Below, piece by piece: positions 6,639 to 31,216 of a DNA stretch of 32,000 nucleotides (its first letter is position 1; each line of letters starts with the position of its first letter). Position numbers and translations under genes: made by a program. The notes under the pieces were generated by a model. That model searched no databases, was not told where the DNA came from, and saw only the letters and a program-made list of their open reading frames with translations. This DNA is from Gemmata obscuriglobus (lineage in GTDB: Bacteria; Planctomycetota; Planctomycetia; Gemmatales; Gemmataceae). The DNA is taken from the NCBI RefSeq assembly GCF_008065095.1, contig NZ_CP042911.1, positions 2,130,001-2,162,000 on the forward strand. Reading direction: 5' to 3'.

Positions 6639-8069
6639 GTGAATAAGAAAAAACTGGTCAGTTACGTTCTGGAGTCGAGCTTCGGCGGTCTGGCTGAAGG
6701 TACCGTTCTTCAGTGCGACGAGGAAAAAGGCAACGCCTTAGTGGCCGCTGGCGTGTGCCGTGAGGCCACTGAAGAGGACATCGGCGAGACCGCTGAAGAC
6801 GAAGTAAAAGAAGACGAGGCGGAAGAGGACAAGGACGAAGGGGACGAGGAACTCGTCCAAGATGCTGTCCGGCGTCTTGCAGCCGATGCTAATGCCACTG
6901 TCACCAAGGCCGTCGAGAAGGCAACCGAGAAGCTGGCGAACCGGGTCAAGCGTCCGGCATTCGCCACCCCGCACGTAGCGGGCTCCGATCTGGCCGCAAC
7001 TGGCGGATTCAAGAACCTAGGTGACGCTGTGGCCGGGTACATCCGGGCACGTAAAGGCGACTTCGACGCAGCTCGGCGTTTCTCCCAGTACGGAAAGGCG
7101 GTCGAAGCTCGAACTAAAGCCACTGGCATGTCGATCAGCGGCGGGTCCGGTCACCAGGGTGGTGACCTCGTGCCGCAAGAGTGGGCTAAAGACCTGTGGC
7201 GTCTTACCTTCCAGAACGTCCCGGACCTGCTCGGGATGATGACCAAGTACGAGATGCGGAATCAGGTCGAGAACATTCCGGCGTGGGTCCAGTCTTCGGC
7301 GGCGGCCGGTATCCAGTCGAACGTGATCGCTGAGGCGAACAGCATCACCGCCACCGTTGGCGTGACGGCCAACGTCCAGTTGTCGTTGGTGAAGGGTGCC
7401 GTCCTGGTGAACACCTCGGACGAACTGCTTCGCTTCAACAGCTACAATTTGGAAAACGTCATCAAACAGGTCGTGCCGGAGCGGCTCCGATTCATGACCA
7501 ACGGTAACGTGGTTGCGGGTACGAACTCCCAGATTAACTTGGTGAGCAACGCCGCAGCCGTAACGGTCATTGCGGCGACACCGGGCCGGATCAACTTCGA
7601 CGACGTTACGAAGATGAATGCGGCACTGTACGACGATTTCGACAATGACGCCATCTGGCTGTGCAGCAAGAGCACTCTGCCAGAACTGTACAGCTTGGCG
7701 TACCCGAACCGTGGGGCAACCAACCCGTACCCGGCCTGGACCCCGGGCACCTTCGGTCAGGAACAGTTGCTCGGGCCGAAGCCGAAGGGCACGCTGTTGG
7801 GCAAGCCGGTGTACACCCTGGAAAACATCCCGGCGTTGGGTTCCCGTGGTGCTCTGATCCTGTGGCACCCGAAGTCCTGTGCGGCCGGGTACAGCGGCCT
7901 GATCGCTGATCAGACACCGTACCTCTACTTCGACCTGGCACAAGATTCGTTCAGATTCCTGTTCTACTTCGACTCGGTGAACCCGCTGACTACGCCGTAC
8001 ACCCGTGCGGACGGGTCGGTGTCGTCGAACATCGTCGTGTTGTCAGCGGGGTCAACCAGCAGCAGTTAA
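6639..8069 (+). CDS. Major capsid protein, HK97-fold-like, with acidic N-terminal delta/scaffold-like region
   Basis: The position, the size and the acidic segment (EEDIGETAEDEVKEDEAEEDKDEGDEE followed by a helical stretch) fit a delta domain upstream of a capsid body. The ORF is open from GTG 6522. GTG 6639 follows GAGGG. The start is uncertain. Confidence 0.75.
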   Translation: MNKKKLVSYVLESSFGGLAEGTVLQCDEEKGNALVAAGVCREATEEDIGETAEDEVKEDEAEEDKDEGDEELVQDAVRRLAADANATVTKAVEKATEKLANRVKRPAFATPHVAGSDLAATGGFKNLGDAVAGYIRARKGDFDAARRFSQYGKAVEARTKATGMSISGGSGHQGGDLVPQEWAKDLWRLTFQNVPDLLGMMTKYEMRNQVENIPAWVQSSAAAGIQSNVIAEANSITATVGVTANVQLSLVKGAVLVNTSDELLRFNSYNLENVIKQVVPERLRFMTNGNVVAGTNSQINLVSNAAAVTVIAATPGRINFDDVTKMNAALYDDFDNDAIWLCSKSTLPELYSLAYPNRGATNPYPAWTPGTFGQEQLLGPKPKGTLLGKPVYTLENIPALGSRGALILWHPKSCAAGYSGLIADQTPYLYFDLAQDSFRFLFYFDSVNPLTTPYTRADGSVSSNIVVLSAGSTSSS

Positions 8070-8769: not shown

Positions 8770-9327
8770 ATCCCGAACGAAGGTCACTCCTTCCGTTCAC
8801 TTGACACATTGCCCTGGCGATCCGCACGCCACTTGTGGAAGTCTTGCACGACTTGACACAGGTACAGCAGGCATAACATGGGTTCACAAGAGTGAGCCCA
8901 TGCCAAGCCTATGTGCGTAATGACCGCCAGAGCAGACCAAACAACGTGGCTGCTCATTCGACTACCCCTCCCTCAACGGTGGGTAAGATTGAATGGCCGT
9001 GTTGGGACATGCACCCCCAATAGGTGTATGTCCACCACAATAACCCCGGGCTGGCCCCCGGGGTTATTGCACGTCGGCCTGGCACTCCGACGCTGTGAGC
9101 CATTGTACAGGTATTCCGTTGGAACGGAAGGTGATCTGTCCGGCTCTAGAAGTCGCACCCCTGCCTCGACCGCACTTCTCGCTTAAAAGCCTTGTATTTC
9201 GAACGTTTTTGCGTCTCAAGAGCACCGGAAAAGTTTCGTGACTTTCCCACCTCATTAGCGGCTGATCGTTTCTTTTTGTTTCTTCACCGCCGAACGGTTT
9301 TCGTTCCTGTTGGCCATACATACCGGT

Positions 9328-10194
9328 ATGGCTGACCTGATCTCCATCGACCGAGCCCTGGCACAGATCCCGACCGCAACGGACGACGACACCACGGTGA
9401 TCGCCGCTCTAATCACGGCAGCCAGCCAAGTCGTCGAAACCAAGCTGAACCGCACGTTCGCACAGGCCAGTTACGACGAGCTTCACAGCGTGGTGGGTCC
9501 GACCGCTTCCATTTGGGCGAATAACCCGCCGATCTCCGACCTGACTGGCGTCCGGAACAACGAACTTCCCGCCTTCTACGTGCAACTGAACGACCCGGCG
9601 AACCTCGTCCAGCGGGCCACGGTGGACATCACCCCGACGGCCGTGGTGCTGAAGAAGACCCTAAACAACGTCAGCACCACCAGCACCTTCACCTTCGCAG
9701 CGTACCCGACGTTCGAGATGCTTTACGCAGCGGTTAACGCCCTCGGTAGCGGGTGGACAGCGACCGGCATGAACAGTCAGTTCCTTCAGTGGCAGACTGC
9801 CGAGATGTGTACGAACCACGGAACTCGGTCCGCCAGGAACGTCTCGTGTCCATTGCTCGTGTTTTGGTGGGACGAGGTGTACTACCAGGTGAACAAAACC
9901 ACGGGCGAGATCATTCTCCCGGCCGTGCGTGGCGTCCAGAACTACCGCATTCAGTATACGGGCGGGTTCAGTACCGTTCCCGAAGCCGTTCAGCAGGCGG
10001 TTGCAGAACTCGTGCAACTCACCTTTGCGTCTCGGCTTCAAAACCCCCTGATGCAAAGCGAGACGCTCGACAAGTACAGCTACACGAAAGCCGCACAGAA
10101 CAACTGGGACTTGCTGTCACTCACGTCGAAGTCGGCACTGAGCATGTACAAAATCCCTCGTCTCACCACGCAAGGAGTACCATCCAAAATTTAA
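9328..10194 (+). CDS. Head-tail connector (gp6-like N-terminus) with long C-terminal extension
   Basis: The N-terminus MADLISIDRALAQIP..DDTTVIAALITAASQVVETKLNRTF matches the gp6-like head-tail connector pattern (recall only). ATG 9328 lies inside an ORF open from TTG 9310. Confidence 0.65.
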   Translation: MADLISIDRALAQIPTATDDDTTVIAALITAASQVVETKLNRTFAQASYDELHSVVGPTASIWANNPPISDLTGVRNNELPAFYVQLNDPANLVQRATVDITPTAVVLKKTLNNVSTTSTFTFAAYPTFEMLYAAVNALGSGWTATGMNSQFLQWQTAEMCTNHGTRSARNVSCPLLVFWWDEVYYQVNKTTGEIILPAVRGVQNYRIQYTGGFSTVPEAVQQAVAELVQLTFASRLQNPLMQSETLDKYSYTKAAQNNWDLLSLTSKSALSMYKIPRLTTQGVPSKI

Positions 10195-10544
10195 TGAGGC
10201 ATCGTGTAGCGGTGTGGCGTCAGAACCTCGTTCAGGGCACCGCCCAACGTATCGACAGGTACACGCAAGCATACGCTGGCGTCCCGTGTTTCATTCAGCC
10301 GGCGTCCTCGGCCCTTCAGTTGTACTATTCGCAGCGGGGCACGGTCGTCACGCACACGATCTACACCACGGCCGTCACCAGGGCATTCGAGCGGGAAGAC
10401 GTTCTGGTTGACGCTAAAGGCAACCAGTACCACCTGACGGCCGACCCGCTGAACGCTTTGGAAAGTGACGTGTACCTCCAACTCGTGGCAGAGCAGTACC
10501 CGGAAGGGGCAAAAAAGCGGCTTGATGTGGAGAGTTTCCAGTGA
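10194..10544 (+). CDS. Head-tail adaptor / head closure protein
   Basis: The ATG overlaps the previous stop (TAATG). It is 116 aa. The pattern RVAVWRQ...CFIQPAS...THTIYT...EDVLVDAKGNQYHL resembles Phage_H_T_join proteins. Confidence 0.6.
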   Translation: MRHRVAVWRQNLVQGTAQRIDRYTQAYAGVPCFIQPASSALQLYYSQRGTVVTHTIYTTAVTRAFEREDVLVDAKGNQYHLTADPLNALESDVYLQLVAEQYPEGAKKRLDVESFQ

Positions 10545-10933
10545 GCGTGAACTGGTACGGTCTGGATTTTCTGCGGCTCACGGAGTCCGAACTGGCCCGC
10601 AACATGGCCAAAGCCGGGGGCTACTTCGCCAGCAAGCTGCGGGGGTATCTGAACGATTCGCAGAGCTATAAGCGGACGCCGAGCGGCGGGTACGTGGGCC
10701 TCGATCCTTCCGTTCCGGGCGGGTTCCCGAAAAAGCTGTCCGGCCAGCTTCAGCGGAGCATCACCTGGGAACTGGACCGCCAGAAATTCGTGCTGACGGT
10801 CGGCACGAACTTGAAGGGGTATCCGAAGTTTTTGCAACTCGGGACGACGGTAATGAAACCACGACCCTGGCTGTCGCTGGGGTTCGACAAGACGAAAGAC
10901 GCCATCGCCCGCATCATCGTGACGGGTAAGTAA
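10541..10933 (+). CDS. HK97 gp10-family neck/tail-completion protein
   Basis: The GTG start overlaps the previous stop (GTGA). The LGTTVMKPRPWL motif is typical of the gp10 family, and the position fits. Confidence 0.6.
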   Translation: MSVNWYGLDFLRLTESELARNMAKAGGYFASKLRGYLNDSQSYKRTPSGGYVGLDPSVPGGFPKKLSGQLQRSITWELDRQKFVLTVGTNLKGYPKFLQLGTTVMKPRPWLSLGFDKTKDAIARIIVTGK

Positions 10934-10941
10934 GGGGGCAT

Positions 10942-11322
10942 TTGAGGAGCACTCTATCGCAGATTGTGACCACGATCAGGAACTTCAATTTGGTGATGCC
11001 GGGGCAGGTGAACGCCTTGACCACGGACAATCTTCAGCCCCCGTACATCCAGGTGGCCGAGTTTGTGCGGGTACCCAATCGGGACACCCAAAACGGCGTG
11101 TTGGAGTCCACCTTCAGCGTCTTGGTGGTCGCCAAGAACCTGGAGGAGGCTGAAGATTTGGCCGAGAACCTCGATTCGCACCTGACGAACAATTATGAAG
11201 CCACGGACCAGGACATCGGCATCTTTCAAGAGCAGTACGCCGTGGGCCTCACGGATCCGTCGAACTTGTATCAGGTCGGCGTGAAGCTGGATTACCGACT
11301 CTTCGAAGACCCCAACAAATAA
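10942..11322 (+). CDS. Tail terminator-like protein (DUF3168-like)
   Basis: TTG start lies after AGGGGG. It is 126 aa and sits just upstream of the tail tube genes. The family call is weak. Confidence 0.5.
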   Translation: MRSTLSQIVTTIRNFNLVMPGQVNALTTDNLQPPYIQVAEFVRVPNRDTQNGVLESTFSVLVVAKNLEEAEDLAENLDSHLTNNYEATDQDIGIFQEQYAVGLTDPSNLYQVGVKLDYRLFEDPNK

Positions 11323-11807: not shown

Positions 11808-12185
11808 ATGGCAAAACAGATCGGTATGGGCGGCGGGGTGACGGCCGGCAGCACGGAGTGCCCCGTCACCGAATGGACCATTAACGTGAACAACGACACG
11901 CAGGACGTGACCGACACCGGCAGCGGAGGCTGGCAGGCGATGCTGGCCGGGGTCAACTCTGCCGAGACCACGTTCACCGCCTTCTGGGGAGGTGCTGTCA
12001 GCGTGTTGTCCACGCTGTTCGCCATCGGCACCACGGTGCCCATCACCCTGACCGTCGGCACCGGCGGGGGCGTGTTCGCCGGGTCGTTCGTCATCAAGAC
12101 GTTTTCCGTGAAGAACAACGCCAAGACGCCGGTCGAGTTCTCGTGTACCGGCACGAGTACCGGAGCCGTGACGATGCCGAGCTAA
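11808..12185 (+). CDS. Major tail tube protein
   Basis: GGAGG-aac-ATG start. It is 125 aa and lies immediately upstream of the chaperone pair. The W..N...DT.DVTDTGSGGW...G sequence resembles small siphovirus tube proteins (recall only). Confidence 0.6.
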   Translation: MAKQIGMGGGVTAGSTECPVTEWTINVNNDTQDVTDTGSGGWQAMLAGVNSAETTFTAFWGGAVSVLSTLFAIGTTVPITLTVGTGGGVFAGSFVIKTFSVKNNAKTPVEFSCTGTSTGAVTMPS

Positions 12186-12974: not shown

Positions 12975-14312
12975 GTGGCGGTAACGGGAAAGATTGCTGA
13001 CGGCATTATTCAGATCGCTCTGGCCGGGTACGAAAAGGTCAAGGAGCAACTGAACGCCGTCAAAGGGCAACTGGGCCAGATGAAGAACGGCCTGGACACC
13101 CTCACGTCCGCCTCGGCCAAAGGGTTTGCCGTCGCCTCGGCTGGCATTCTTGGCTTCCTGAAAGCGGCCGACCCGGTGCGGTTCACCATCTTCACGCAGA
13201 AATTGGAGGTGCTCGCCATTCATATCGGCCGCACCTTCATCCCGCTGCTCGAATCGGCCATCAAGTGGATCGACAAGCTAATTGCGTACTTCAGCAAGCT
13301 CAGTGACGGCCAGCGGGACAATATCCTCCACTGGTCGAAGATCGGCCTACTAATTCTGGGCGTCGGGACCGCAATTGGTAAAGCCATCAGTTTGATTTCG
13401 AGCTTGTGGAGCCTTATCTCGGCCGGTGTCGGCGTGGTCCGGCCGCTGGTCGAGATCCTGTCGAAGATCATCCCTATCGGCAAGGTTCTGCGGCTGTTGA
13501 CGCTGGGGTTCCTGTTGTTCAACGGCGAAGCAGGTCGGGCGACCGAACTGTTTGGCAAGCTGAAGGAAATGGCCCTTCCGGCTCTGGAGAGCTTGTGGGG
13601 CGTGTTGAAGAAGGTGTACGAGGCGTTCGTCCAGGTCGGGGGCCTGGTGGGCGACATCGTGGACGACATCTTCAACGGCATCGGCGGCGGACTGCTGGAC
13701 GTGTTCGAAGAGGCGTTACCGCTGATTCAGTTGGCACTGAACCACATGAAGGCCATCCTGGATCTTATCGGGACGGCCTTGTCTGAGGTGGTTAGTGTCA
13801 TCAAGGACGCTAAGGCGATTTACTCGGTGTTGAGAGAGAAAAAGGCGAGCGAGCTGCCGAAAGCGATTGCTCAGGGCCTCGGTCGGGCCGTGGTGAACGA
13901 CCTGGAAGGTGCGGCCGGAAACATCAGCGACTTCTTCGGCGGTTTCGGCAAAGAAACGCTGGGTGGTGTGGCTGATTTTGTTCGGGACGATGTGATTGGC
14001 GGCAAAGCGGACGAAGACGCTATGTCAGCGGCCCGGGAGCGACTGGACACCACAGACGGCGACTTCAGCGGCCACGGGTCCGGTGGCGAATTTACCGGGG
14101 CGGGCGGCAAGTACAACCCGCTCCTCCCGCCGGTACGGGTACAGAATTTTGGTCTGGAAGAGGCGTTCAAGAAGGCCCAGCAAGGGGCCAGCTTCGACCC
14201 GACAAAAATTGCGGAGAACGAGCGGAAAAAGATCGCCATCGAGAGTCGGGATTATTTGAAATCGATCAGCGAAAAGGTGACCCCAGAGAGTGCGGCGGCT
14301 GGTGCGTTTTAA
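12975..14312 (+). CDS. Tape measure protein (short, 445 aa)
   Basis: AGGAGG-acc-GTG start. The protein looks helical with long hydrophobic stretches (LLILGVGTAIGKAISLISSLWSLISAGVGV) and a Gly-rich C-terminal part. It follows the chaperones. Confidence 0.75.
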   Translation: MAVTGKIADGIIQIALAGYEKVKEQLNAVKGQLGQMKNGLDTLTSASAKGFAVASAGILGFLKAADPVRFTIFTQKLEVLAIHIGRTFIPLLESAIKWIDKLIAYFSKLSDGQRDNILHWSKIGLLILGVGTAIGKAISLISSLWSLISAGVGVVRPLVEILSKIIPIGKVLRLLTLGFLLFNGEAGRATELFGKLKEMALPALESLWGVLKKVYEAFVQVGGLVGDIVDDIFNGIGGGLLDVFEEALPLIQLALNHMKAILDLIGTALSEVVSVIKDAKAIYSVLREKKASELPKAIAQGLGRAVVNDLEGAAGNISDFFGGFGKETLGGVADFVRDDVIGGKADEDAMSAARERLDTTDGDFSGHGSGGEFTGAGGKYNPLLPPVRVQNFGLEEAFKKAQQGASFDPTKIAENERKKIAIESRDYLKSISEKVTPESAAAGAF

Positions 14313-17209: not shown

Positions 17210-17479
17210 ATGTGGATTGATGAATTAAAACGTGAACTGACGGGCCGAATGCTCGACATCTGGGATGGCACCAGCGGCTTAGCCCCCGACATTGAAGAGG
17301 GGTACCGGCGGTTGTGGCGGCGACAAGCGGCCTCGGCCAAGGAGGGGGTTCGACCCGGACGAGACGGTCCGGCGTCGGGGTGCGGTTGTAAAGGAGAACA
17401 TGGGCAACGGCGTACCGCTAGAGAAGCAAGCAGCTCCTCCGTATCGTCTTCACCTCCGTCAGGGGCAGTGTCCGGGTGA
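17210..17479 (+). CDS. Doubtful small ORF (MWIDELKRELTGRMLDIWDG...)
   Basis: ATG ORF of 89 aa. The first ~45 aa look protein-like and the rest is low complexity. It overlaps the next gene by 80 nt and has no SD. Confidence 0.25.
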   Translation: MWIDELKRELTGRMLDIWDGTSGLAPDIEEGYRRLWRRQAASAKEGVRPGRDGPASGCGCKGEHGQRRTAREASSSSVSSSPPSGAVSG

Positions 17480-18356
17480 CGTGCTGGTCCTCACAGCAGC
17501 CGTCGAAAGCTTGCACCGAGCTTACCCGGGGGAATATCTCGTATCGGTCCAGACGACCGCACCTGAAATTTGGTGGCACAACCCCGGAGTTACCGACACC
17601 CCGGCGTACCAGTGTGCAATTTTGGAAATGGAATATCCGGCCATTCACGAGTGCGGCACTCGGCACGTCCATTTCATGCACGCCTTCTGCGAATATCTGT
17701 CGAATTTGATCGGCCGTCCAGTGCCTTTGGCAGTGAACCGGCCGCACCTGTACCTAGCCCCCGACGAACAAAAGCCGCTGGACGCTGTTCGGACCGATGT
17801 CCCGTACTGCGTCATCAATGCCGGGCACAAACTAGACTACACGGCCAAGTTCGCTAGCACGGCAATTTGGCAGGAGGTGGTGGATTATTTCCGGGGGCGG
17901 CTTCAATTCGTTCAGGTGGGAGAAGCGAATCCGCACCACATCCATCGCCCTCTGGAGGGAGTGCTGAACCTGATCGGCAAAACGACATTCCGTGAGTTCT
18001 TTCGGCTGGTTCGGTATTCGACGGTGGCGTGCGGTCCGGTTTCGTTTTTGATGCACACGGCCGCTGCGTTCGAGGTGCCTTATGTGTGCCTGGCCGGGGG
18101 CCGGGAGGAGCCGTCATGGGCGGCGTATTCCACGACTCAGTATCTGCACACGATGGGGGCGTTGGACTGTTGCCGCACATCGAGAGCGTGCTGGAAGTCG
18201 AGGACGGTGCCGCTGAAGGACGGAAATCGAAATGACCTGTCGCTTTGTTCGCTGCCGGTGATCCAGGACGACGGTGAAGCGGTGCCGAAATGCCTAGATA
18301 TGATTGGTGCCGCCGGCGTAATTCGGGCCATTGATCAGCAACTGGGAGGCAGATGA
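17400..18356 (+). CDS. Glycosyltransferase family 9 (heptosyltransferase)-like protein
   Basis: AAGGAG-aac-ATG at 17400 lies inside an ORF open from TTG 17292. NLIGKTTFREFFRLVRYSTVACGPVSFLMHTAAAFEVPYVCLAGG matches the GT9 C-terminal nucleotide-sugar binding signature (recall only). Confidence 0.7.
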   Translation: MGNGVPLEKQAAPPYRLHLRQGQCPGDVLVLTAAVESLHRAYPGEYLVSVQTTAPEIWWHNPGVTDTPAYQCAILEMEYPAIHECGTRHVHFMHAFCEYLSNLIGRPVPLAVNRPHLYLAPDEQKPLDAVRTDVPYCVINAGHKLDYTAKFASTAIWQEVVDYFRGRLQFVQVGEANPHHIHRPLEGVLNLIGKTTFREFFRLVRYSTVACGPVSFLMHTAAAFEVPYVCLAGGREEPSWAAYSTTQYLHTMGALDCCRTSRACWKSRTVPLKDGNRNDLSLCSLPVIQDDGEAVPKCLDMIGAAGVIRAIDQQLGGR

Positions 18357-19882
18357 GCGACGGGAAAAAGCTGGTTCAGTTCTTCGACCACGGCCTCGGA
18401 GATTGTGTGCAGTACGTCACGCTGCTCCAGTTGTACAAACGGCGGGGGTACGACGTTCGGTGCCACTGGGAACCGAACAAAGAACACGTGTTCCAGGCCG
18501 CCGGGATCGGGCACCAGCAGACGCTTAAGCACAATCCGTGGAAGTACTACCCGGGCTTCAATTCCCCGAAACCAGAACAGGACGGCAGCGGCAACAAGAC
18601 CTTCTTGAATTTGAACCGGGACGGCCTTCCGCACATCGGCGAACCCGATGAGCTTTGGGACGAACTGTGCCAAGTGAACCTGGAAGACAGTTTCGACAAG
18701 CTCATCACGCCGGAAGTGCGGGCCGAGGTGGATCGATTCCTTGACGGCCTGCCCCGACCGATCGTCTGTATTCACAGTAAAGGCACGAACTTTCAGGGCG
18801 AGAAAACAATTCCGGATAAGGCGATTTCCGAGGTGTACTCATTGCTCCTTGACGGGATGCCGGGGTCGTTGGTTCTGATGGACTGGGACAACCGGGTGCC
18901 CCGGCCGCCGCATGGTCGTATTCGTCACGTGAAGCGGGACTGGGGCCACATTTCCGTTCTGCAAACAGCAGCCCTGTTGAGTGCGTCGGACCTCCTGATC
19001 GGCATCGATTCCGGCCCGTACCACCTGGCCGCAATGACTCGAACTCCGGCTTTGGGCGTGTTTCACCACTTTTACCCATCGTGCGTGACGTTGCCCCGGC
19101 CAACGCTGAAAAACGTCGTCATGACCCGGAATGCGAATTCGTACAAACCGGTGAACCAGGCCCGGCGAAAGCGGTGGAGTGTGGTGGAATACGGCGGAGC
19201 TTTGCCGTCTGCTTCGGACATCGCCACTCACGCTTTACGGATGCTAACCGGACCTCGTTACGGACTTCCGTTGGGCCGGGACGTGATGCTTCAACAAATG
19301 GTCCGAGACTGGTTGAAAGCGAGTACTGGCACCTCGGCGTTGGCAGACCGGAACAACACGATGGACTGGTTGTTTCGAGAGCTTGGCCGTTTTCCGAACC
19401 CGCAAATTGTTGAAACCGGTAGTATTCGAAGCCGGGAGGATTGGTCGGCGGGCTACAGTACGTACTTATTCGGGTGCTATTTGGACGGCCGGAATGCGGG
19501 GCAACTGACTTCGACGGACGTTGACGGCGGGAATTGTGCGACGGCTCGGGAGCTTTGTCGTCCGTGGGGCGAACGGGTTTCGGTGGTCGAGTCGGATTCG
19601 GTGCAATTTTTGAAGGGATACGGCGGGAAGATCGACGTGTTGTTCCTTGATTCGATGGATTGCGAACACGCTGAACACGCTTCCCACGGACTGGCCGAGG
19701 CGAAGGCGGCCGAACCGCACTTCCACGACGGTTCAATCGTAGGGTTCGACGACACTGTTTGGCAGAGCGGGCGGTGGACCGGCAAGGGCGGCCTCGGCGT
19801 GCCCTACCTACTCGGCCAGGGGTGGAAGGTGGCGGCCAGCGGGTACCAGACATTCCTCGTTATAGGACCGGGAAAGACGTGA
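18353..19882 (+). CDS. Fusion of a GT9-like glycosyltransferase (N) and a class I SAM methyltransferase-like domain (C)
   Basis: The ATG overlaps the previous stop (ATGA). LLIGIDSGPYHLAAMTRTPALGVF is the GT9 signature. IVETGSIRS...GYST and IDVLFLDSMD resemble class I SAM-methyltransferase nucleotide-binding motifs. Confidence 0.7.
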   Translation: MSDGKKLVQFFDHGLGDCVQYVTLLQLYKRRGYDVRCHWEPNKEHVFQAAGIGHQQTLKHNPWKYYPGFNSPKPEQDGSGNKTFLNLNRDGLPHIGEPDELWDELCQVNLEDSFDKLITPEVRAEVDRFLDGLPRPIVCIHSKGTNFQGEKTIPDKAISEVYSLLLDGMPGSLVLMDWDNRVPRPPHGRIRHVKRDWGHISVLQTAALLSASDLLIGIDSGPYHLAAMTRTPALGVFHHFYPSCVTLPRPTLKNVVMTRNANSYKPVNQARRKRWSVVEYGGALPSASDIATHALRMLTGPRYGLPLGRDVMLQQMVRDWLKASTGTSALADRNNTMDWLFRELGRFPNPQIVETGSIRSREDWSAGYSTYLFGCYLDGRNAGQLTSTDVDGGNCATARELCRPWGERVSVVESDSVQFLKGYGGKIDVLFLDSMDCEHAEHASHGLAEAKAAEPHFHDGSIVGFDDTVWQSGRWTGKGGLGVPYLLGQGWKVAASGYQTFLVIGPGKT

Positions 19883-19890
19883 CGAGCGGC

Positions 19891-21213
19891 TTACTGCTTG
19901 ACCCGGGGCAGCGGAGCTACCTCGACGGCCTTAATGGTGATGATGAATTCTCCATCTGGCCTGTAGAATTTTTCTTTGTCAGGCCCACACAGATCGCCAT
20001 ATGTTCCTACTGCCATCAATATTTCGCTTGAAAGCTTATTCTTAACAAGATGGTTTCTGTATATTCTTTCGATCGTCTTGTCTAGAAGTACTCTCACCTG
20101 CGATGGCTCCGTCGCCGTGAGTAGGTCACACACGCCTTGGGTCGTCACCTTTGTTCCGAGCAGCCCTGCGTACCGAAGGGTTTTGATCCGCCGGAGGGAC
20201 ACGTCGGTGACGGCCGTCCGATCGGCCACGAACACCCCGAGGCTTACGGCACCGTCAAGGAATGAGGCTAAAGACCCGTCATCAACCGCCGTGTGAGAAA
20301 CATCAAGAAAGTCAATTTTTGCGGCGTCACTTATTTGTGGGAGAACGGTCAGGTTGTTCTTCGACAGGTTGAGCCTCTTGACGCCGTTGACCTTCAGGCT
20401 GCGAATCTTTGCATCGCTCAGCAAACAGTTGGGCAAGCTCAGACTCGTGAGGCCGTGAATTTGGCTAATAACTTGCAAGTCGGACGGTTCAAGGGCAACT
20501 CCCACAATATCAAGACTGACCAGATTCCTAATGCTCGAAACGGCCTCCACGATTGGTGCTGACTCTTCCAATTTGAGCGGCGGATTCTGCCATGCCGGCC
20601 CGTACCCCCCATTGTCACGCTCGTTCGAGTAGGTCCGAACTGTGACACTCACCTTCTGTGTCGTCGGGTCAATGTCGATGTCACAACCGACCCGGTGGTT
20701 TGTCGTCCGGCCGAGACCGGCCAGGAAAGCAACCGCTCTCTCATGACGAGCGAATGCTTCAAGTCGCTTATTCGCCTTGTCCAGTTCCTGTTCGGCACCA
20801 GCTAGCTTTAACGCAAACCCGGCCGCAAGCTTTCGCTTCTCACTCACCTCCGTTTGTGCAGCCCCGAGATTCTTGGCGGTTTGGGCCAAGTCAGCTTCCT
20901 TTTCCTTCAAAACCCACTTCAACTGGTTGATCTCGGCATTGATAGCGTCTCGTTTCACCACTAGCTCTTTCTGGTCGCCTTCCAGTTTCATTACCTGCAT
21001 GGCGACTTCGCTTTTTTTTGCCTCCAGTTCGCTCTTTTTGCTGTCAATGACGCCGGTCGAATACAGCATGTACCCAGCGATAATTGTTGCACTAACCCCA
21101 GCGGCTGTAGTCAGGCTGCTGATCCATTCAGTTGGTTTCGAGGCCCGCAGCCACGTACCCGTCACGTGCATCCAGAGCCGTGCCCACCGCCCCAGCCTCG
21201 ATTTGCTGGCCAT
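19891..21213 (-). CDS. Membrane-anchored coiled-coil leucine-rich-repeat protein (accessory/moron gene)
   Basis: ATG 21213 follows AGAGGGGA. TTG 21270 is an alternative start. It has a TM-like segment (ISSLTTAAGVSATIIAGYMLY) and ~100 aa of heptad-like charged sequence. LRR-like units follow (LTSLSLPNCLLSD, VKRLNLSKNNLTVLP, IDFLDVSHTAV). The 3' end is only about 35% GC. Confidence 0.75.
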   Translation of the reverse strand: MASKSRLGRWARLWMHVTGTWLRASKPTEWISSLTTAAGVSATIIAGYMLYSTGVIDSKKSELEAKKSEVAMQVMKLEGDQKELVVKRDAINAEINQLKWVLKEKEADLAQTAKNLGAAQTEVSEKRKLAAGFALKLAGAEQELDKANKRLEAFARHERAVAFLAGLGRTTNHRVGCDIDIDPTTQKVSVTVRTYSNERDNGGYGPAWQNPPLKLEESAPIVEAVSSIRNLVSLDIVGVALEPSDLQVISQIHGLTSLSLPNCLLSDAKIRSLKVNGVKRLNLSKNNLTVLPQISDAAKIDFLDVSHTAVDDGSLASFLDGAVSLGVFVADRTAVTDVSLRRIKTLRYAGLLGTKVTTQGVCDLLTATEPSQVRVLLDKTIERIYRNHLVKNKLSSEILMAVGTYGDLCGPDKEKFYRPDGEFIITIKAVEVAPLPRVKQ

Positions 21214-21297
21214 TGCGTCCCCTCTTGAGGTTCGCTGTCCAATTTTTGGTTCGCTGGCGAACGTTTGCAATTTTCTGCGATGCGGGGTGCGAGGTGC

Positions 21298-22080: not shown

Positions 22081-23706
22081 TTATTTCTTTTTCTTTGCGG
22101 ACTTGGCCATGTGTGCCATGTCGGTTAGTGGCACTTCGGTACCCCACACGCCTTGTTCGTCCTTCGCTGTGTCGTACCACACCTTTCGCACCGTCCCGGA
22201 GTGCAGCCGGATTGTCAGAAACACCCGCTTGTCCTCGACGCTCACTTCGATCTTTTCCAGGTGCATTAATAGCCGTTGCCGTACCTGCTCCCTGAGTTCT
22301 TTGAGTTCGGAGCCGGATTTGCTTTTCATCAGGTCAACTAGGGCTTTCGTGTCCTCGATGTTCGGCCTCGTTTGCTGGCGTGATTTCTCTTCGATTTCGT
22401 TCGTCAGCCGGGTTTTCTCGACCTGCATTTCGGCTAACTTCGCCATGACCGCTGGCACCTCTGCCCCAAGCTGGTCGAGCTGGTCAGCGATATTCTTGAT
22501 CCGCTCTTCGAGAAATTTCCTCTGAGCTTTGAGCGTCTCGATACCGTCTTCTTGGTTCTCTTGCGGTAGAAGGTCGCTTGCCTTCAATTCGTACAGCCAG
22601 TGCAGCACCACGCTTTCGAACCGTTCGTACCGCACCGCTACGTAGGGGTGCTCTTTCTTCCAGCCCAGATACGAGACGAGATACCGATAGTTGTGCTTTC
22701 CCGATTTGTTCGTCTTCGGCTTAGATATGAAAACCATATTGCAATCATGTTCTGGGTAGCGAACCAACCCCGTGAACAGGTTCACGAAATCGCCCTTCCG
22801 CCCTTGTTTGCCCGACCGGAGCTTCATTGCGTCTTGTGCAGCCCGATACGTTTTCTCATCGATAATCGGCGGGTAATATCCGGGGATGGCCGGACCGGGC
22901 TTGACCTTCTCGCCGTGTATCTGGGTCGGCAGTTCCCCCAGGACTCGGCGGTCCCTGAGAATGTCCCAGATGTATTTTTGTGCCCACCCGCTCCTGAACG
23001 GCGGTACCTTCTCTTCGAGCAATCGCCGCATTATCGATTGCAGCCCGTGCCCTTCGATGCACCAGCGGAACAGCTTCCGCACCAGCTCCACACGCTCCGG
23101 AATTTCTTCGAACCGGCCGCCGGTCACCCGGTTGTTCTTCTTCTTTTGATCCACCACCTTCAGCCACCCCGGGCAGATTTTGCTGAAAACCTTCCCTTCT
23201 GCGGCTTGGCGGTGTTTCTCCGTCCAGTTTTCCCGGGACCGAACCGCCTTTTTCTGTGACTCTTCGTGGGCCAAATAAAACCGCCAAATCAAACCCATCA
23301 GCCCCATCGGATCGTTCAAGCTGTCTTTCGTGTAAAGCCGGTACTCGATGACGCTGAACAGGTCACAGCCCTGTTCAAGTATTTTTCTCGCCACGTCCAC
23401 GCTGGCCATGATTTTGTCACGGGAGAGCCGGTCCAAGTCCTCCAGAATTAACACCGGGTTCGGTTCCAGTTGTCTCGCTTCGAGGGCTGCGAGAAATGCG
23501 GACAAATCGCCTTTGGTGCGGTTTCGGCCACGAAAGGCAGATACCCCGCAGTCCCGGTACGTTTTCGTTTGGAGTACCCACCCTTTTTCCCGGCAGATTC
23601 GTACCGTGCCTTCCGTTTGCCGTCGCTGGCTGTCACCCTTTTCTTGCTCTGGGGTGCTGAACCGTAGGTAGCTGTAGGCGGGGCGGTTCGGTGTGGTCGG
23701 GTTCAT
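22081..23706 (-). CDS. Large serine recombinase (prophage integrase)
   Basis: The N-terminal resolvase-type catalytic domain has AYSYLRFSTPEQ..GDS..RQ and LILEDLDRLSRD. A long recombinase domain and a C-terminal coiled-coil-like region follow. It is 541 aa and is the last gene before the host junction. Confidence 0.9.
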   Translation of the reverse strand: MNPTTPNRPAYSYLRFSTPEQEKGDSQRRQTEGTVRICREKGWVLQTKTYRDCGVSAFRGRNRTKGDLSAFLAALEARQLEPNPVLILEDLDRLSRDKIMASVDVARKILEQGCDLFSVIEYRLYTKDSLNDPMGLMGLIWRFYLAHEESQKKAVRSRENWTEKHRQAAEGKVFSKICPGWLKVVDQKKKNNRVTGGRFEEIPERVELVRKLFRWCIEGHGLQSIMRRLLEEKVPPFRSGWAQKYIWDILRDRRVLGELPTQIHGEKVKPGPAIPGYYPPIIDEKTYRAAQDAMKLRSGKQGRKGDFVNLFTGLVRYPEHDCNMVFISKPKTNKSGKHNYRYLVSYLGWKKEHPYVAVRYERFESVVLHWLYELKASDLLPQENQEDGIETLKAQRKFLEERIKNIADQLDQLGAEVPAVMAKLAEMQVEKTRLTNEIEEKSRQQTRPNIEDTKALVDLMKSKSGSELKELREQVRQRLLMHLEKIEVSVEDKRVFLTIRLHSGTVRKVWYDTAKDEQGVWGTEVPLTDMAHMAKSAKKKK

Positions 23707-23775
23707 GGTTTCCCCTCGATTGCCCTGATTTTAAAGCATTTCATGTGGTTGTCAAAAGTGTTGGCGGGTGCGTGG
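23707..23775. other. Prophage-host junction (attL or attR of the serine integrase)
   Basis: AT-rich phage sequence (ttttaaagcatttcatgtggttgtcaaaagtg) gives way to GC-rich comEC-like coding sequence at about 23757-23765. The exact crossover dinucleotide cannot be placed without the other junction. Confidence 0.6.
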
Positions 23776-24548
23776 TGATCGAGGCGCCGGACGGCCGGGT
23801 GCTGCTGTACGACACCGGCACCACCGCCGGCCCGGACGCGGTGCGCCGGGTGGTGGCGCCGTACCTGTGGAGCCGCGGGGTGACGCGGATCGACGAAGTG
23901 TTCTTGTCGCACGCCGACCTGGACCACTTCAACGGGGTGCCGGAACTGCTCCGGCGGTTCCACGTGGCTCAGGTGACGATGACGCCGACGTTCCCGGACA
24001 AGAATAGCCCCGGCGTGGAAGCCGTGCTAGCCGCGCTGGACCGGCACAACGTCCCGCGCGGGTTCGCGGCCGCGGGGCAGCGGTTCGTCGCGGGAGATGT
24101 CGCGCTGGAGGTGTTGCACCCGCCGCCCGTCGGCCTGGAGGGGAACGAGAACGTGCGAAGTCTGGTGCTGCTCGTGCGTCACGGCGCGCACACGGTGCTG
24201 CTGACGGGCGATCTGGAAGGGGAGGGGCAGGCGCGGGTGACGGCGCGGGCGATTGCGCCGGTGGACGTGATGCTGGCCCCGCACCACGGGGCGAAGAGTG
24301 CGAACGCGCCGCGTGGCGTGGCGGGCGCGCCGGAACCGGGTGTGATGGCGGCGTGGGCGCGTCCGAAGTTGGTGGTATCGAGCCAGCGGGCCGGGACCGC
24401 GACGGATCACCTGCCCCGGAGCTACCGCGGGGCGACGGTGTGGGACACGCCATCGGCCGGGGGAGTGACGGTGCGGAGCCACCGCACCGGGATGGTCGCG
24501 GACGCGTTCCGCACCGGCGCGCGCCAGGTGGTCGGGCGCGGGGAGTAG
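23757..24548 (+). pseudogene. comEC: comEC/rec2-like gene, 3' fragment (metallo-beta-lactamase domain only), split by the prophage
   Basis: VVIEAPDGRVLLYDTG, LSHADLDHFNG, NENVRSLVLLV, LLTGDLE and APHHGAKS are the ordered ComEC MBL-domain motifs. The membrane competence domain is absent. The upstream 66 nt of the open frame are phage-like in composition. Confidence 0.8.
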
Positions 24549-24627
24549 CGACGCAACGTCGTTCAGAACGCGCGGCGGAATTATTCCCGCTCCTAGGGGC
24601 GCCCAAGCGCGATGGAGGAACCGAGGA

Positions 24628-24710
24628 GATTTTGACAGGATCGACAGGATAAACAGGATTTTGAATCAATCTGTCTTCATCCGGTAAATCCTGTTAATCC
24701 TGTCAAAATC
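24628..24710. repeat. Palindromic element built from ACAGGAT / ATCCTGT units
   Basis: GATTTTGACAGGAT (24628-24641) is the exact reverse complement of ATCCTGTCAAAATC (24697-24710). Inner arms AACAGGATTT and AAATCCTGTT also pair. The left side carries one extra CGACAGGAT unit. Confidence 0.8.
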
Positions 24711-25294
24711 TGTCTCCGTGAGCACGTGGACTGCACGAGCCGAAACGGCGCCACGGCTATCCGCCCATTCCGCCCCCCGTTCTTATTCTGTTTGCTTCGC
24801 CCGGGTCCGGAGAAGCACCGATACACCGAACACCGACACGCTGGAGCGTTACGCACAATGAAGCATCAGAGGCCGTGCCGCTCTAATCCGCTACAAGCCG
24901 CGTACGCCGGTTACACCCGCGACGATGTGAGCGACCGAAACAGCCGGGAAGGGGAGTTCATGTGTTCCGTTTGGGGGCGGTGCTGTAACCCCCGTTACAG
25001 CCGGACACCGATGCAATCGCTGGTGCGTCGACTGGACATCCGCTGCCGTCCGACTACCCGTTCGCTGCCACTTCGCAGGGTAGTTGCTACCAACGAATTG
25101 CCCGTCTCAAGCCTTGGAAACGGCTCTCGGAAGTAACAGCGATCGGGTTGCGGTGCCGCCCGGTGTTGCTCTGTAAAGTGTTGTAATTTAATTGCTTACG
25201 AGCTTTTCTTGCTCGAACTCGCTTCTCGGGCTACGAGTTTGAAAACGGGAAACTGGCCTCGTGACATCTGCCGTACAGGTGGCGCGGCAAGTCC

Positions 25295-27680: not shown

Positions 27681-28811
27681 CTATTGCGGGGCGGTGTGTT
27701 TGCGCAACTGCCCCCGGAGCCGGCGGATTTCGAACACGGCGGTGCAAAGCAGTACGGCCAGAACGGCGATCGCGGTGCCGAGCCAGACGGTTGGTGATCC
27801 GCTCTCGTCTCGTGCGGGTGGGGGCTTGGAAACCCCAGGTTTTACGAGCGACGGCTCCGGCACAGGAACGGGATTGGGGATGGGCTGAGCGGAGCCGGTT
27901 CGGAACCCGTCCGCGTCGACTCGGTACCGGACGTTGCAGTCGTGGTCGTCGCACCATTGCCCTTCGAGCCCGGGGATGCGGAACGCTTCTTGCGGTATGG
28001 GCTCGTTGACGCGGATCTCGGACAGTACCGTGACCCGGTGCTCCTTGAGTTCTCCGTTTTCGAACGACCGGTGTTCGACTCGCGCCGGGTAGAACTGGCC
28101 CGGCTTGGGTTCGGCAAACGCCGTCACCTCGTGCTCGTGATGGTGGTGGGACTGATCGTGGGGGTACTCGGTGTGCTTCCGAATCAGGTAGTTGTGGTTC
28201 GGGCTGAACCAGAACTCGTTGACACTACTGTCGTGCTTCAGCACCACGTGGATTTCCGCAGCCTCGCCTGGCTGCGTCGGGAGGCGTCTGATCGAAATGA
28301 TTTCGTGGGGCTGTCCCAGTAACGCGTGAAAAGGGAGCGACCCTCCGTCGCGAGACGTGTAATCGAACAGGGGGCCGATGGGGTCCGACATACATCGCCA
28401 ATGAGCGGAGACGGTTGGCTTTTGATAATCGCTCGGCTCGGCCGGCATTGACACGTTCAATAAGTACCCGAAGCGAGAGAGCTGGTCAAACATCGCCATG
28501 TCCGACATGAGGGTGCGCTGCCTCCAGGCGTCGGGCGTGCGCCAGAACTGCGTCGGGCCGGTGGCGAAACTGACATGACCCATGCCCACGGGCGGCATTC
28601 GATCGTCTTCGTACTTGTAGCGAAGGGCCTCCCATTTCAACGTGTAATACCGTTCCGTGTAGCTTACGGTGCGGATCGCGTCGCGGGCCGCGCGGTGGCG
28701 GTCGCGGACTTCGTCCAGGAGGGCACGCTCGTTCGGTTCGGATGCGGCCAGTGGGGAAACAGGGGTAAGAACACAGACCGAAATGAGGAGCCAGTTCCGG
28801 CACACGGGCAT
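27681..28811 (-). CDS. Hypothetical secreted protein with His-rich patch and C-terminal membrane anchor (376 aa)
   Basis: ATG 28811 gives MPVCRNWLLISVCVLTPVSPLAAS (signal-like). It has HDQSHHHHEHE and a Pro-rich linker, then WLGTAIAVLAVLLCTAVF followed by basic residues. The upstream part of the 919 aa track ORF is a GC-driven artefact. Confidence 0.65.
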   Translation of the reverse strand: MPVCRNWLLISVCVLTPVSPLAASEPNERALLDEVRDRHRAARDAIRTVSYTERYYTLKWEALRYKYEDDRMPPVGMGHVSFATGPTQFWRTPDAWRQRTLMSDMAMFDQLSRFGYLLNVSMPAEPSDYQKPTVSAHWRCMSDPIGPLFDYTSRDGGSLPFHALLGQPHEIISIRRLPTQPGEAAEIHVVLKHDSSVNEFWFSPNHNYLIRKHTEYPHDQSHHHHEHEVTAFAEPKPGQFYPARVEHRSFENGELKEHRVTVLSEIRVNEPIPQEAFRIPGLEGQWCDDHDCNVRYRVDADGFRTGSAQPIPNPVPVPEPSLVKPGVSKPPPARDESGSPTVWLGTAIAVLAVLLCTAVFEIRRLRGQLRKHTAPQ

Positions 28812-28829
28812 GGCGGGACTCGCGCGTGG

Positions 28830-28895
28830 GGCGGCGCCAACGGGGCGCCGGGGGCCGATGCACAACGCGGACCCCGGCGCCCCGTTGGCGCCGCC
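28830..28895. repeat. Perfect 24 bp inverted repeat in the gap between two co-directional genes
   Basis: GGCGGCGCCAACGGGGCGCCGGGG (28830-28853) and CCCCGGCGCCCCGTTGGCGCCGCC (28872-28895) are separated by an 18 nt spacer. Confidence 0.85.
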
Positions 28896-28933
28896 GTGAA
28901 AATGTTCGAGCGTTCGGGCATTCGGGCGTGGCG

Positions 28934-30784
28934 TTACTCTTCCAGGAACTTCTTGAACTCGATCTGGTAGCAGGTGGTGTTGCTGTTGCCGCAGAACAGG
29001 GACTTGCCGTCCGGGCCGAACGCGAGCGACTGGACCGGCCCGTCGAACCCGCGGGCCACGAGCAGCCGGCCGCTGAGCACGTCCCAGCACCGCACGATGC
29101 CGTCGTCCCCGCCGCTGAGCAGGTAGCTGCCGGTCGGGTCGAAGCACACGGCGCTGATGGTGCCCTGGTGCCCGCCGAACACGAACACCGTCGCCTGGGT
29201 CTCGGCGTCCCACACGTAGACGGCGTCTTCGAGCCCGGCGCCGGCGAGGTACTTGCCTTGCGGGTCGAACGCCAGCGCCGTCACCCCGACATCGATCGTG
29301 TACAGCTTTTCCTTCGTGGTCACGTCCCACACGCACACCGCGCCGTCGCGCTCGCCGGTGCGCATGTAGTCGGCGCCCCCGCACGCGACCCGCTTCCCGT
29401 CCGGGTGGAACGCGATCGTCTCCAGGGTGCAGGCGTCCGCGGCCTCCACGATGATCATGTCGGGCTGGCCGGTCTCGCACGCCCACAGCCACACCAGGCC
29501 GTCGGCCGGGCTGGTGTGAGCGAGCGTCTTCGAGTCGGGGCTGAAGGTCACGAACCCGACCGGCGGCTTGGTCGCTTCGAGCGAGTGCGCGAGGCTCCCG
29601 TCGGCCGCGTTCCAGAGCTGCGAGAAGTAGTCGGTGCCGCCGATCCCGAGCCACTTCCCGTCCGGCGAGGCGGCCACGGAGAACGCCGGACACAGGTTGG
29701 TGGGGGCCACCTCGTCGCCGCTCTCCACGTCCCACACGCGCACGTTCTGCGCGCCGGAACTGGCGAGCCGGAGCGGGGCGCCGGGGAGCACCGCGATCGA
29801 GTGCCGGCCGCGCGGGTTCGGGCCGGCGATCAGCTTCCCGGCGCGCACGTCCCACACGTGAACCACGCGGTCCGCGCCGGCGCTGGCGAGCTTCGTCCCG
29901 TCCGGGCTGAAGCACAGGCACCGGACCTCTTCGTTGTGGCCCCGCAGCACCGGGCCGCGGGCGGCGCCCTCGGCGTCCACCCACAGGTGGATGTCGAAGT
30001 CCGAGTCGGCGCAGGCGAGGTACCGGCCGTCCGGGCTGAACGCGGCCGTCACCACCTGGTCGGCGTGGCTGTTGAGCAGCATGAGCGGGTCCGGGTGCGG
30101 CGGCCGCCACACCCGCGCGGACGTGTCCCAGCCGGCGGAGACCAGCAGGGCCGAGTCCGGCGACCACACCAGCGCCGGGATGCGGTCCGTGTGGCTCTTG
30201 AGTTCGGCGACCGGGCGGCGCGTGGCCGCGTCCCACACCCGGACGGTGAGGTCCTCGCCGGCGGTCGCGACGAACTTCCCGTTCGGCGAGAACGCGAGCG
30301 CGGAAATCGCTTTGCGCGGGTGCGCCTGCACCTCGCCCACGAGTGCGAAGCTCGTGGCGTCCCAGAACCGGAGCTTCCCGTCGTCGTGGCCGCTGGCCAC
30401 GACCGCCCCGTCGGCGCTGAACGCCAGCGCGGTGAGCCACGCCGAACCGGCCGGCTGCTCGATCCGGCTCAGGAGCTGTCCGGTGCCGGTGTCCCAGATG
30501 AGCAGGTCGTCGTTACCGCTGGCGAGCCGCTTCCCCCCGGGGCCGAAGCACCACAGCGTCTCGAGGTCGCTCAGGAAGTGCCGGGCCAACAGCCGCCCGT
30601 CGGGGGCCCAGTGCCGCAGCACGCCCGACTCGTCGATCGAAAACAGACGCCCCTCGGCGTCGAAGGTGAGCCCCGCGATGTCGCCGTCGGTGTGGAACCT
30701 CGGCTCGCCGAACACCCGGGTTACAAGTGGCAACGGGTAGATGGGTGTTGCGTCTTCGCGTGGAGTGGTCACGGGTGTGGACAT
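28934..30784 (-). CDS. WD40 repeat protein (about 14 repeats, probably two beta-propellers)
   Basis: Recurrent units end in VWD, IWD, FWD or LWN, with SP/SADG..LASGG cores (LRFWD, VRVWD, ARVWR, IHLWV, VHVWD, VRVWD, SQLWN, VWLWA, VCVWD, VYVWD, VRCWD). ATG is at 30784 and TAA at 28934. Confidence 0.9.
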   Translation of the reverse strand: MSTPVTTPREDATPIYPLPLVTRVFGEPRFHTDGDIAGLTFDAEGRLFSIDESGVLRHWAPDGRLLARHFLSDLETLWCFGPGGKRLASGNDDLLIWDTGTGQLLSRIEQPAGSAWLTALAFSADGAVVASGHDDGKLRFWDATSFALVGEVQAHPRKAISALAFSPNGKFVATAGEDLTVRVWDAATRRPVAELKSHTDRIPALVWSPDSALLVSAGWDTSARVWRPPHPDPLMLLNSHADQVVTAAFSPDGRYLACADSDFDIHLWVDAEGAARGPVLRGHNEEVRCLCFSPDGTKLASAGADRVVHVWDVRAGKLIAGPNPRGRHSIAVLPGAPLRLASSGAQNVRVWDVESGDEVAPTNLCPAFSVAASPDGKWLGIGGTDYFSQLWNAADGSLAHSLEATKPPVGFVTFSPDSKTLAHTSPADGLVWLWACETGQPDMIIVEAADACTLETIAFHPDGKRVACGGADYMRTGERDGAVCVWDVTTKEKLYTIDVGVTALAFDPQGKYLAGAGLEDAVYVWDAETQATVFVFGGHQGTISAVCFDPTGSYLLSGGDDGIVRCWDVLSGRLLVARGFDGPVQSLAFGPDGKSLFCGNSNTTCYQIEFKKFLEE

Positions 30785-31216
30785 GAAAGCCCTTCGTCGT
30801 GCGGTCTCGGTGTTCGCGCGGTGGGCGCGCGGAACGGGCGTTTCAACTCTAGAACAGTGTTTCCGTTGAGGCGAGAAAAACAGGGGCGCCGGGCAGAAAA
30901 TTCGGCGTGCCGGGAACAGTTGACCAATTCGGAATTATTGTCGCATTTAAAATATTCTGCGCCAACAACAGAAATCCAGAGGATTTGGGCTGCGCGAGCC
31001 GCAAGCCACGTGAGTTTCGCCAAGTATGGCTTTGCTGGACCGGAAAGCAAATCGGCAGCGCGGAAAGCTCATTTACGGTGCGGGCCGGGTTTCATTCCGA
31101 CGACGGTTATTGCAAATGTGCCGCTTTTACGGCACTCACGCGGTTCCGGTACCAGCCGTATTACGGCAAACGGGTGTGATCTGGACGTTGCACCGCGGTC
31201 GCCCGTTTGAAACCGA

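Follow-up and report, generated by a model that had tools for sequence, protein, structure and literature searches.

Large serine recombinases can split a gene in such a way that it can be rejoined. For example, in Bacillus subtilis SPbeta (recombinase SprA) resides in spsM and skin (SpoIVCA) in sigK, and both are excised as part of a developmental program of the mother cell. A classic switch based on a serine integrase is the Listeria comK prophage (PMC7397523). In streptococci, Phi1207.3, Phi10394.4, and Tn1207.1 occupy comEC/celB (PMC4260502); the two phages and their derivative Tn1207.1 employ serine recombinases, sit at a GA dinucleotide in comEC, and abolish competence (PMC4260502, PMC8321556). 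According to Croucher et al. (2016), by targeting competence genes mobile elements avoid being deleted through transformation, and different elements with related or convergent integrases repeatedly hit conserved sites in uptake genes such as comYC, comFA, and comM (PMC4774983). Here we analyzed a 32,000-nt stretch of Gemmata obscuriglobus DNA, referred to below as the window, in which the gene for a prophage serine integrase lies beside a fragment of comEC that encodes only the metallo-beta-lactamase (MBL), or nuclease, domain. It is highly probable that this junction is attR, the right attachment (att) site of a temperate siphovirus-like phage that was integrated inside comEC by its own serine integrase.

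Prophage junctions within comEC

The open reading frame (ORF) that begins at position 23691 and ends at 24548 (285 aa, plus strand) matched the Lactamase_B domain from profile position 8 onward, with the match starting at residue 27 (1.4e-17). Close homologues read ...DExRVTFLAVGHGGCVVIETPDGRVLLYD at the protein level, whereas the window reads ...FKAFHVVVKSVGGCVVIEAPDGRVLLYD; the corresponding sequences in the alignment with relatives are ...RVTFLAVGHGGCVVIE and ...FHVVVKSVGGCVVIE. The window diverges from its homologues before 'GGC', and therefore ComEC homology begins at nucleotide ~23763, 57 bp from the integrase start codon. The HADLDH motif lies downstream of the break, which falls at approximately positions 8 to 9 of the Lactamase_B model, in the first strand of the nuclease domain; upstream of the break point the homologues encode the Competence membrane domain (PF03772). 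The preliminary description of this DNA had claimed that a serine integrase prophage splits a comEC-like gene within the MBL domain, and both the domains and the alignment breakpoint bear this out, with the split at the very start of that domain. The right piece shares 92.7% nucleotide and 94% amino acid identity with the C-terminal 258 codons of the intact comEC of Gemmata algarum. The best database match to the MBL ORF was an identical (100%) 'ComEC/Rec2 family competence protein' of G. obscuriglobus, a species in which three proteins (P0001, P0254, and P0255) are annotated as ComEC/MBL. The guanine-plus-cytosine (GC) content steps from ~0.55 to 0.68 between the integrase ORF and the MBL ORF, and is ~0.53 to 0.60 in the prophage versus 0.62 to 0.74 in the host flank.

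A profile of the Competence domain built from relatives retrieved a 272-aa G. obscuriglobus 'Competence protein' (P0124) at a locus designated L078 (CP025958.1 5,890,270-5,911,088, reversed). This locus overlaps the window, position 1 of which is L078 position 20736, and the two together span 52.7 kb. P0124 came via the protein search and an exact-sequence look-up (the like look-up of P0001 gave no record); a scan of genome contigs with the middle part of comEC returned 74 Gemmataceae loci, G. obscuriglobus not among them, and the same part had no match in viral contigs. The comEC piece in L078 (10001-10741, or window positions -10735 to -9994) lies directly past the other prophage end, ~10 kb to the left of the window, and holds the middle 244 codons of the gene. 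Its frame runs ...RVTFLAVGHGGCV as far as attL, the left att site, where unrelated sequence takes over; small early genes come next, then a gene for a DnaB-like helicase and the beginning of the terminase gene.

Joining the two flanks produced CTGGCGGTGGGTCAC-GGCGGGTGCGTG-GTGATCGAGGCG, which yields LAVGHGGCVVIEA, in frame and equal to the family consensus, and restored the conserved motif FLAVGHGGCVVIE with codons ...FLAVGHGG-C-V-VIE.... The junction sequences expected after excision would be ...GGTCACGGCGGGTGCGTGGTGATCGAG... for attB and ...CAAAAGTGTTGGCGGGTGCGTGCAGTCGCCGTCAC... for attP. Rejoining was exact, with no target duplication beyond the shared core, the geometry of conservative recombination. 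The rebuilt attP, ~48 bp long, consists of a left half, TTGTCAAAAGTG-TTGGCGGGTGCG, and a right half, TGCAGTCGCCGT-CACTTTTGGCAA, so that its 12-nt inverted arms (11 of 12 positions complementary) are separated by a 24-nt spacer (TTGTCAAAAGTG-N24-CACTTTTGGCAA) with its center between G and T. This center of symmetry points to the GT at 23772-23773 as the probable crossover dinucleotide. Dyad symmetry in attB looked weak by eye. Among 119 fetched loci, the motif TTGNYAAAASTGTT occurred only at comEC junctions. A search of the window for the partner att arm found the attR arm alone, as the left prophage end is beyond the window. The core-to-core distance gives a prophage size of 33,768 bp. The features of the locus are listed in Table 1.

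Table 1. Prophage, att site, and comEC features in G. obscuriglobus (window positions unless L078 is named)
Feature	Position	Strand	Basis or remark
Prophage, left 10 kb (early and replication genes, attL)	-10005 to 0 (L078 10730-20735)		
Prophage, right 23.8 kb	1-23762		PHROG and Pfam matches, GC, overlap with L078
Terminase large subunit, C-terminus	66-1040		
Portal	1019-3181		
Protease/scaffold-like	3303-4133		
Major capsid	6522-8069		
Head-tail adaptor	9310-10194		
Tail completion	10541-10933		
Major tail	11808-12185		
Tape measure	12975-14312		
GT9/methyltransferase-like ORFs	17292-18356 and 18353-19882		Second is a full-length match to phrog_24975
Leucine-rich-repeat ORF	19891-21270	minus	
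Large serine recombinase (integrase), 541 aa	22081-23706	minus	Pfam Resolvase and Recombinase
Sigma-70-like promoter facing the integrase (candidate)	23728-23755	minus	-35 TTGACA 23755-23750; -10 TAAAAT 23733-23728
Phage-derived att arm (P arm) TTGTCAAAAGTGTT	23749-23762	plus	
12-bp core GGCGGGTGCGTG	attR 23763-23774; attL L078 10730-10741	plus (attR)	Identical in both
Inverted partner arm CACTTTTGGCAA	attL, L078 10752-10763		
Host-derived comEC 3' end	23775-24548	plus	MBL (nuclease) domain, HADLDH metal-binding motif, to stop codon

The same junction recurs in three independent assemblies of G. obscuriglobus as well as in Logan run assemblies, and thus it is not an assembly artifact. In the 2008 draft assembly both prophage junctions are on a single contig. 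Among the Logan contigs examined for excision, a short contig (L082) has the integrated attR.

Relatives without the prophage show the empty site. The comEC of G. algarum JC673 (locus L010) encodes 859 aa, with DUF4131, Competence, and Lactamase_B domains; in this locus, positions 9812-10554 are 96% identical to the left piece at the nucleotide level and positions 10544-11319 are 93% identical to the right piece, the two matches overlapping in the core alone (10544-10554). This full three-domain architecture is present in G. algarum and ~70 relatives; the N-terminal, middle, and C-terminal parts are contiguous in ~70 of the 74 Gemmataceae species loci, and the site motif is uninterrupted in 65 of them. 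The preliminary description had named a stand-alone MBL gene in prophage-free relatives as evidence that would refute it; those checked have one contiguous gene and no separate MBL gene. Many database homologues are nevertheless 'MBL-only' proteins of 250 to 300 aa, some of them on long contigs, as would be seen if the MBL ORF were a natural stand-alone gene that adjoins the integrase by coincidence. However, the short proteins that were checked were either frameshift-split calls of a contiguous gene (L002, L116, L118, and L119) or further insertions at the comEC site (L001 and L115), and the missing upstream codons were found at the other prophage end. The left piece, the intact G. algarum gene, and the checked homologues refute a natural stand-alone MBL gene, to which we give practically no credence.

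Stray pieces of comEC were observed at three of the related loci. G. algarum has an extra copy of middle-part residues ~41 to 124, 1 kb upstream of its intact gene (L010 7568-7825); in L014 (420-1617) a 1.2-kb insert in the middle part is flanked by a ~35-codon duplication; and in L022 (10483-11587) three extra copies of an MBL fragment lie just downstream of an intact comEC. These pieces may be scars of earlier element traffic.

The integrase matched Resolvase (PF00239; residues 10 to 167) with 51.9 bits (cut-off, 23.3; 1.2e-13) and Recombinase (PF07508; residues 203 to 296) with 50.8 bits (cut-off, 21.1; 2.2e-13), and the catalytic-serine motif YSYLRFST, which contains Ser17, is near its N-terminus. 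Large serine recombinases are ~450 to 700 aa long and have a zinc ribbon, usually with four cysteines, in which a coiled coil is embedded. The predicted protein conforms in having a catalytic domain with its serine, followed by a Recombinase domain, and in its size of 541 aa. It is the sole recombinase among the prophage ORFs scanned. A tyrosine integrase was rejected as the real recombinase because none was present among the scanned prophage ORFs or the precomputed Pfam matches of called genes, and the tyrosine integrase at L078 435-1346 is outside the prophage. No recombination directionality (excision) factor was identified.

The sigma-70-like site upstream of the integrase agrees with the consensus at 11 of 12 positions, and it was the one site found versus 0.1 expected in shuffled sequences. 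It would presumably drive the integrase. Because its -35 box lies within the att arm, binding of the integrase to its own att arm might make expression autoregulated. The preliminary description had also suggested that a truncated MBL protein might still be made, and, as it stated, the frame is open from GTG 23691 through phage-derived DNA; by the alignment breakpoint, this stretch measures ~72 nt (23691-23762). GenBank and RefSeq starts for this ORF give 285, 267, or 258 aa, with ORFs beginning in phage DNA at 23691, 23745, or later. No promoter-like site was found before the truncated MBL ORF, the only one found being that which faces the integrase.

There is very good support for site-specific integration by a predicted large serine recombinase, with comEC split as a result. 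The integrase would have cleaved at the GT of the Cys-Val codons and thereby recombined the ~48-bp attP with its matching attB in comEC. The insertion parts the membrane-channel (Competence) portion from the nuclease portion, each piece gaining a short phage-encoded tail or head, and ComEC function would be abolished while the phage is in place. The most likely basis for the choice of site would be that the GHGGC-V codons offer a strongly conserved landing pad in a gene dispensable for growth. Loss of DNA uptake may in addition shield the element from removal by transformation.

Several observations weigh against this interpretation. The zinc ribbon (PF13408) had no match in the integrase even at E ≤ 10, and there is a single cysteine (C322) within residues 300 to 380, with weak coiled-coil-type matches at residues 378 to 490. 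A sequence search of the PDB with the integrase gave no match. No close relatives of it were found in viral or metagenome contigs, where the best matches had ≤35% identity over most of the protein and up to 50% on short fragments. The identity of attP and attB over 12 bp is longer than the 2-bp overlap that a serine integrase needs, and therefore the exact crossover is placed by symmetry alone. A search of IMG/VR for a free attP with the symmetric arm pattern gave 0 matches. The evidence consists of assemblies and sequence comparison; integrase activity is a prediction, and excision, a free attP, and phage particles are hypothetical. A second, intact comEC elsewhere in the genome is possible, the protein searches having covered matches of less than ~1.75 times the query length. 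Natural transformation is, to our knowledge, undocumented for Gemmata or the Gemmataceae and has never been shown in Planctomycetota, so that any benefit from blocking uptake is conjecture.

Truncation of the G. obscuriglobus gene

The preliminary description expected the rest of comEC beyond the other prophage end. The middle 244 codons are there, but the first ~391 codons are absent: a tblastn search of the 52.7 kb of L078 plus window did not find them, and a protein search with the G. algarum N-terminal part returned no G. obscuriglobus protein. The reading frame rebuilt by in silico excision is open for ~504 to 507 codons versus the 859 aa of the G. algarum protein, and it aligns to relatives from residue ~361 to 392 onward, depending on the relative. 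In Pfam terms, it comprises Competence positions 84 to 268 plus Lactamase_B, without DUF4131 and Competence positions 1 to 83, and thus the G. obscuriglobus copy has less than the full three-part ComEC/Rec2 architecture even after excision. The prediction that joining the flanks would recreate an uninterrupted comEC therefore held for the junction, which is in frame with the motif exact, but not for the 5' end of the ORF. Because the first ~391 codons are absent, excision here would yield a 5'-truncated gene and no full comEC.

The similarity to G. algarum breaks off abruptly at codon ~392 on one side and at the stop codon on the other, and neither comEC flank is syntenic with G. algarum, even at the translated level. 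The DNA upstream of the left piece is island-like and encodes a tyrosine integrase, a Ser/Thr kinase, a helicase, and an NYN-domain protein. It is possible that the 1.5-kb comEC piece was already a pseudogene or partial duplicate, perhaps borne on an island, when the phage landed in it, in which case the insertion would have had no consequence for the host. The abrupt ends of homology, the nonsyntenic flanks, the island-like upstream stretch, and the stray comEC fragments in G. algarum and other loci all fit such a relic. However, the gene is intact in ~70 relatives, so the normal target of this integrase family is a live gene, and the truncation may have come before or after the insertion. 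The 5' breakpoint itself (L078 9960-9998; window approximately -10775 to -10737) also bears on the question. It has TTCACAAGTGTC followed by 9 nt and GT, the same register as the attR arm plus 9 nt plus GT, with 9 of 10 arm-core positions matching, and a reverse-arm-like AGCACTGTTGAC lies just before it. This arm-like motif in register hints at the integrase rather than at random decay. The breakpoint might thus be a second integrase-made junction, which would mean that comEC was hit twice; the resemblance is suggestive but unproven, and it was noticed post hoc. Repeat searches around the breakpoint gave nothing convincing. On balance, insertion into an existing relic is an alternative that deserves consideration, although we regard it as unlikely.

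Reuse of the site and content of the elements

The comEC site is occupied by at least two further elements, which substantiates the earlier suggestion of a distinct attB specificity. In the metagenome-assembled genome DS2.012, contig PNLP01000047 (L013) encodes DUF4131 and a complete Competence domain and ends ...IGHGCCV, and the gene for a 540-aa serine integrase, 63% identical over 518 aa to that of G. obscuriglobus, starts 60 bp farther on. The other junction is on PNLP01000056 (L001), which reads ...TTGACAAAACTGTTacc-TGCTGCGTC-gtgattgaa and then continues into the MBL part. Both DS2.012 junctions share the core TGCTGCGTC, and the rebuilt attP has the same arms, a 24-nt spacing, and a central GT. 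The element (L013 10617-20543 and L001 1-10000) carries type I restriction-modification genes (hsdR/M/S), a Ser/Thr kinase gene, and a DUF4145 gene, and no phage structural genes were found in the ~18 kb visible. An arrangement similar to the promoter-like site of G. obscuriglobus, TTGTCA...TAGAAT, was seen by eye before the DS2.012 integrase (L013 10560-10600).

The third case is metagenome contig Ga0401342_00449 (IMGVR_UViG_3300037834_000031; L115/L117), in which GTTGTTAAAACTGTT-tccgggtgtacggtgctggaa comes after phage tail genes and leads into comEC, of which only the MBL part is present. In both L001 and L115, the arm motif keeps the spacing to these comEC codons that it has in G. obscuriglobus. 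The same codons have thus received three independent insertions; the integrase was shown for two of the three, and apart from the integrase no similarity among the three elements was detected. The integrase of G. obscuriglobus is on the MBL side and antisense to comEC, whereas that of DS2.012 is on the 5' side and in the sense direction, and therefore the cassette of integrase gene and attP is inverted relative to the target, with the same GT. From these comparisons, the comEC site is a specific, reused target, and the integrase module is common to a phage and a defense-type island.

These elements are also relevant to the suggestion that the insertion serves as a regulatory switch, in which precise conditional excision would restore comEC and be followed by reintegration, a form of active lysogeny. 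In favor of a switch, the frame would be recovered exactly from the conservative junctions, a promoter-like site for the integrase is present at the junction, and in DS2.012 the 5' part is complete (DUF4131 plus the full Competence domain), so that excision there would rebuild a full gene. However, every assembly shows the integrated form alone, no directionality factor was identified, and the rebuilt G. obscuriglobus ORF is without DUF4131 and the start of the Competence domain. In addition, use of the site by elements with unrelated cargo fits element-driven targeting over host regulation. Such a switch is therefore very improbable. The switch that the preliminary description envisaged found no evidence of excision behind it in G. 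obscuriglobus, where comEC is a dead gene and not a reversible switch.

A broader proposal, which we put forward tentatively and consider rather doubtful, is that one lineage of large serine integrases in Gemmataceae has settled on the part of comEC encoding the first strand of the nuclease domain as its fixed target and passes between phages and defense islands that are otherwise unrelated. If true, this would mean that mobile elements and natural transformation are in continuing conflict in Planctomycetota, and it would offer a ready-made pair of integrase and att site for genetics in bacteria that are hard to engineer.

The phage morphogenesis genes of the G. obscuriglobus prophage are co-oriented to the left of the integrase and by PHROG matches form a complete head and tail set. 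Between the tail module and the integrase, the ORFs in 17292-21270 are cargo-like and are possible lysogenic-conversion genes. Beyond the prophage, ~80 bp past the comEC stop, there is an inverted repeat (24627-24711) with 33-nt arms that are 85% complementary and a 19-nt loop. Each arm has three ACAGGAT-type motifs (GACAGGAT CGACAGGAT AAACAGGAT), and among the fetched loci the 14-mer GATTTTGACAGGAT from this repeat occurred only in one G. obscuriglobus locus. It may act as a terminator or an operator array, or it may be a small repeat element. Farther on, a very GC-rich stretch (27681-31210; 0.72 to 0.74 at 29000-30500) has long overlapping ORFs on both strands, of 919 aa (minus) and 794 aa (plus), neither of which had Pfam matches.

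Comparison with described systems

In literature searches, no publication was found that describes this Gemmata prophage or any element targeting comEC in Planctomycetota, and nothing on topic turned up for natural transformation and comEC in Planctomycetes. A defined set of attP, attB, attL, and attR is now available for a previously uncharacterized serine integrase, with empty sites in a sister species and dozens of relatives, and the integrase is a possible integration tool for Gemmata or other Planctomycetota, for which genetic tools are scarce. Recurrent disruption of competence genes by mobile elements is now seen in a further phylum and at another site of comEC, a hint that DNA uptake may matter in Gemmataceae. 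No new mechanism is revealed; the event is mechanistically unsurprising, and the idea of a switch is weakened in G. obscuriglobus.

As described in the literature, the closest counterparts are the prophages Phi1207.3 and Phi10394.4 (52 to 59 kb) and the derivative Tn1207.1 of Streptococcus pyogenes and Streptococcus pneumoniae, which are likewise site-specific inside comEC, with a recombinase of the serine family and a defined dinucleotide (PMC4260502, PMC4774983, PMC8321556). In contrast to that group, the Gemmata prophage is in a different phylum, its dinucleotide is GT rather than GA, no resistance cargo was seen in it, and it has a single 541-aa integrase, whereas the streptococcal element has three recombinases (370, 412, and 521 aa). 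The Listeria comK prophage (A118 or phi10403S) is also temperate, with a serine integrase, and also resides in a competence gene, which its precise excision restores (PMC7397523). However, comK encodes a regulator, whereas comEC encodes a channel/nuclease protein, and the Gemmata gene is 5' truncated. Active lysogeny was shown experimentally in Listeria, whereas the Gemmata prophage is known from assemblies in its integrated form. Unlike the case of SPbeta and skin, there is no evidence for programmed excision in Gemmata.

The pattern conforms to the targeting of competence genes described by Croucher et al. in that an uptake gene is split, with a probable loss of function, and the same site is used by different elements in different hosts. 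That framework was built on naturally transformable species, whereas transformation is undocumented in Gemmataceae. The preliminary description had considered a comEC-targeting serine integrase to be a new case. This is correct for Planctomycetota and for the site, but serine recombinase prophages in comEC were already known from streptococci. Thus, the phylum and the att site are new, as is a small lineage of integrases whose specificity is conserved, whereas the type of event is one already known.

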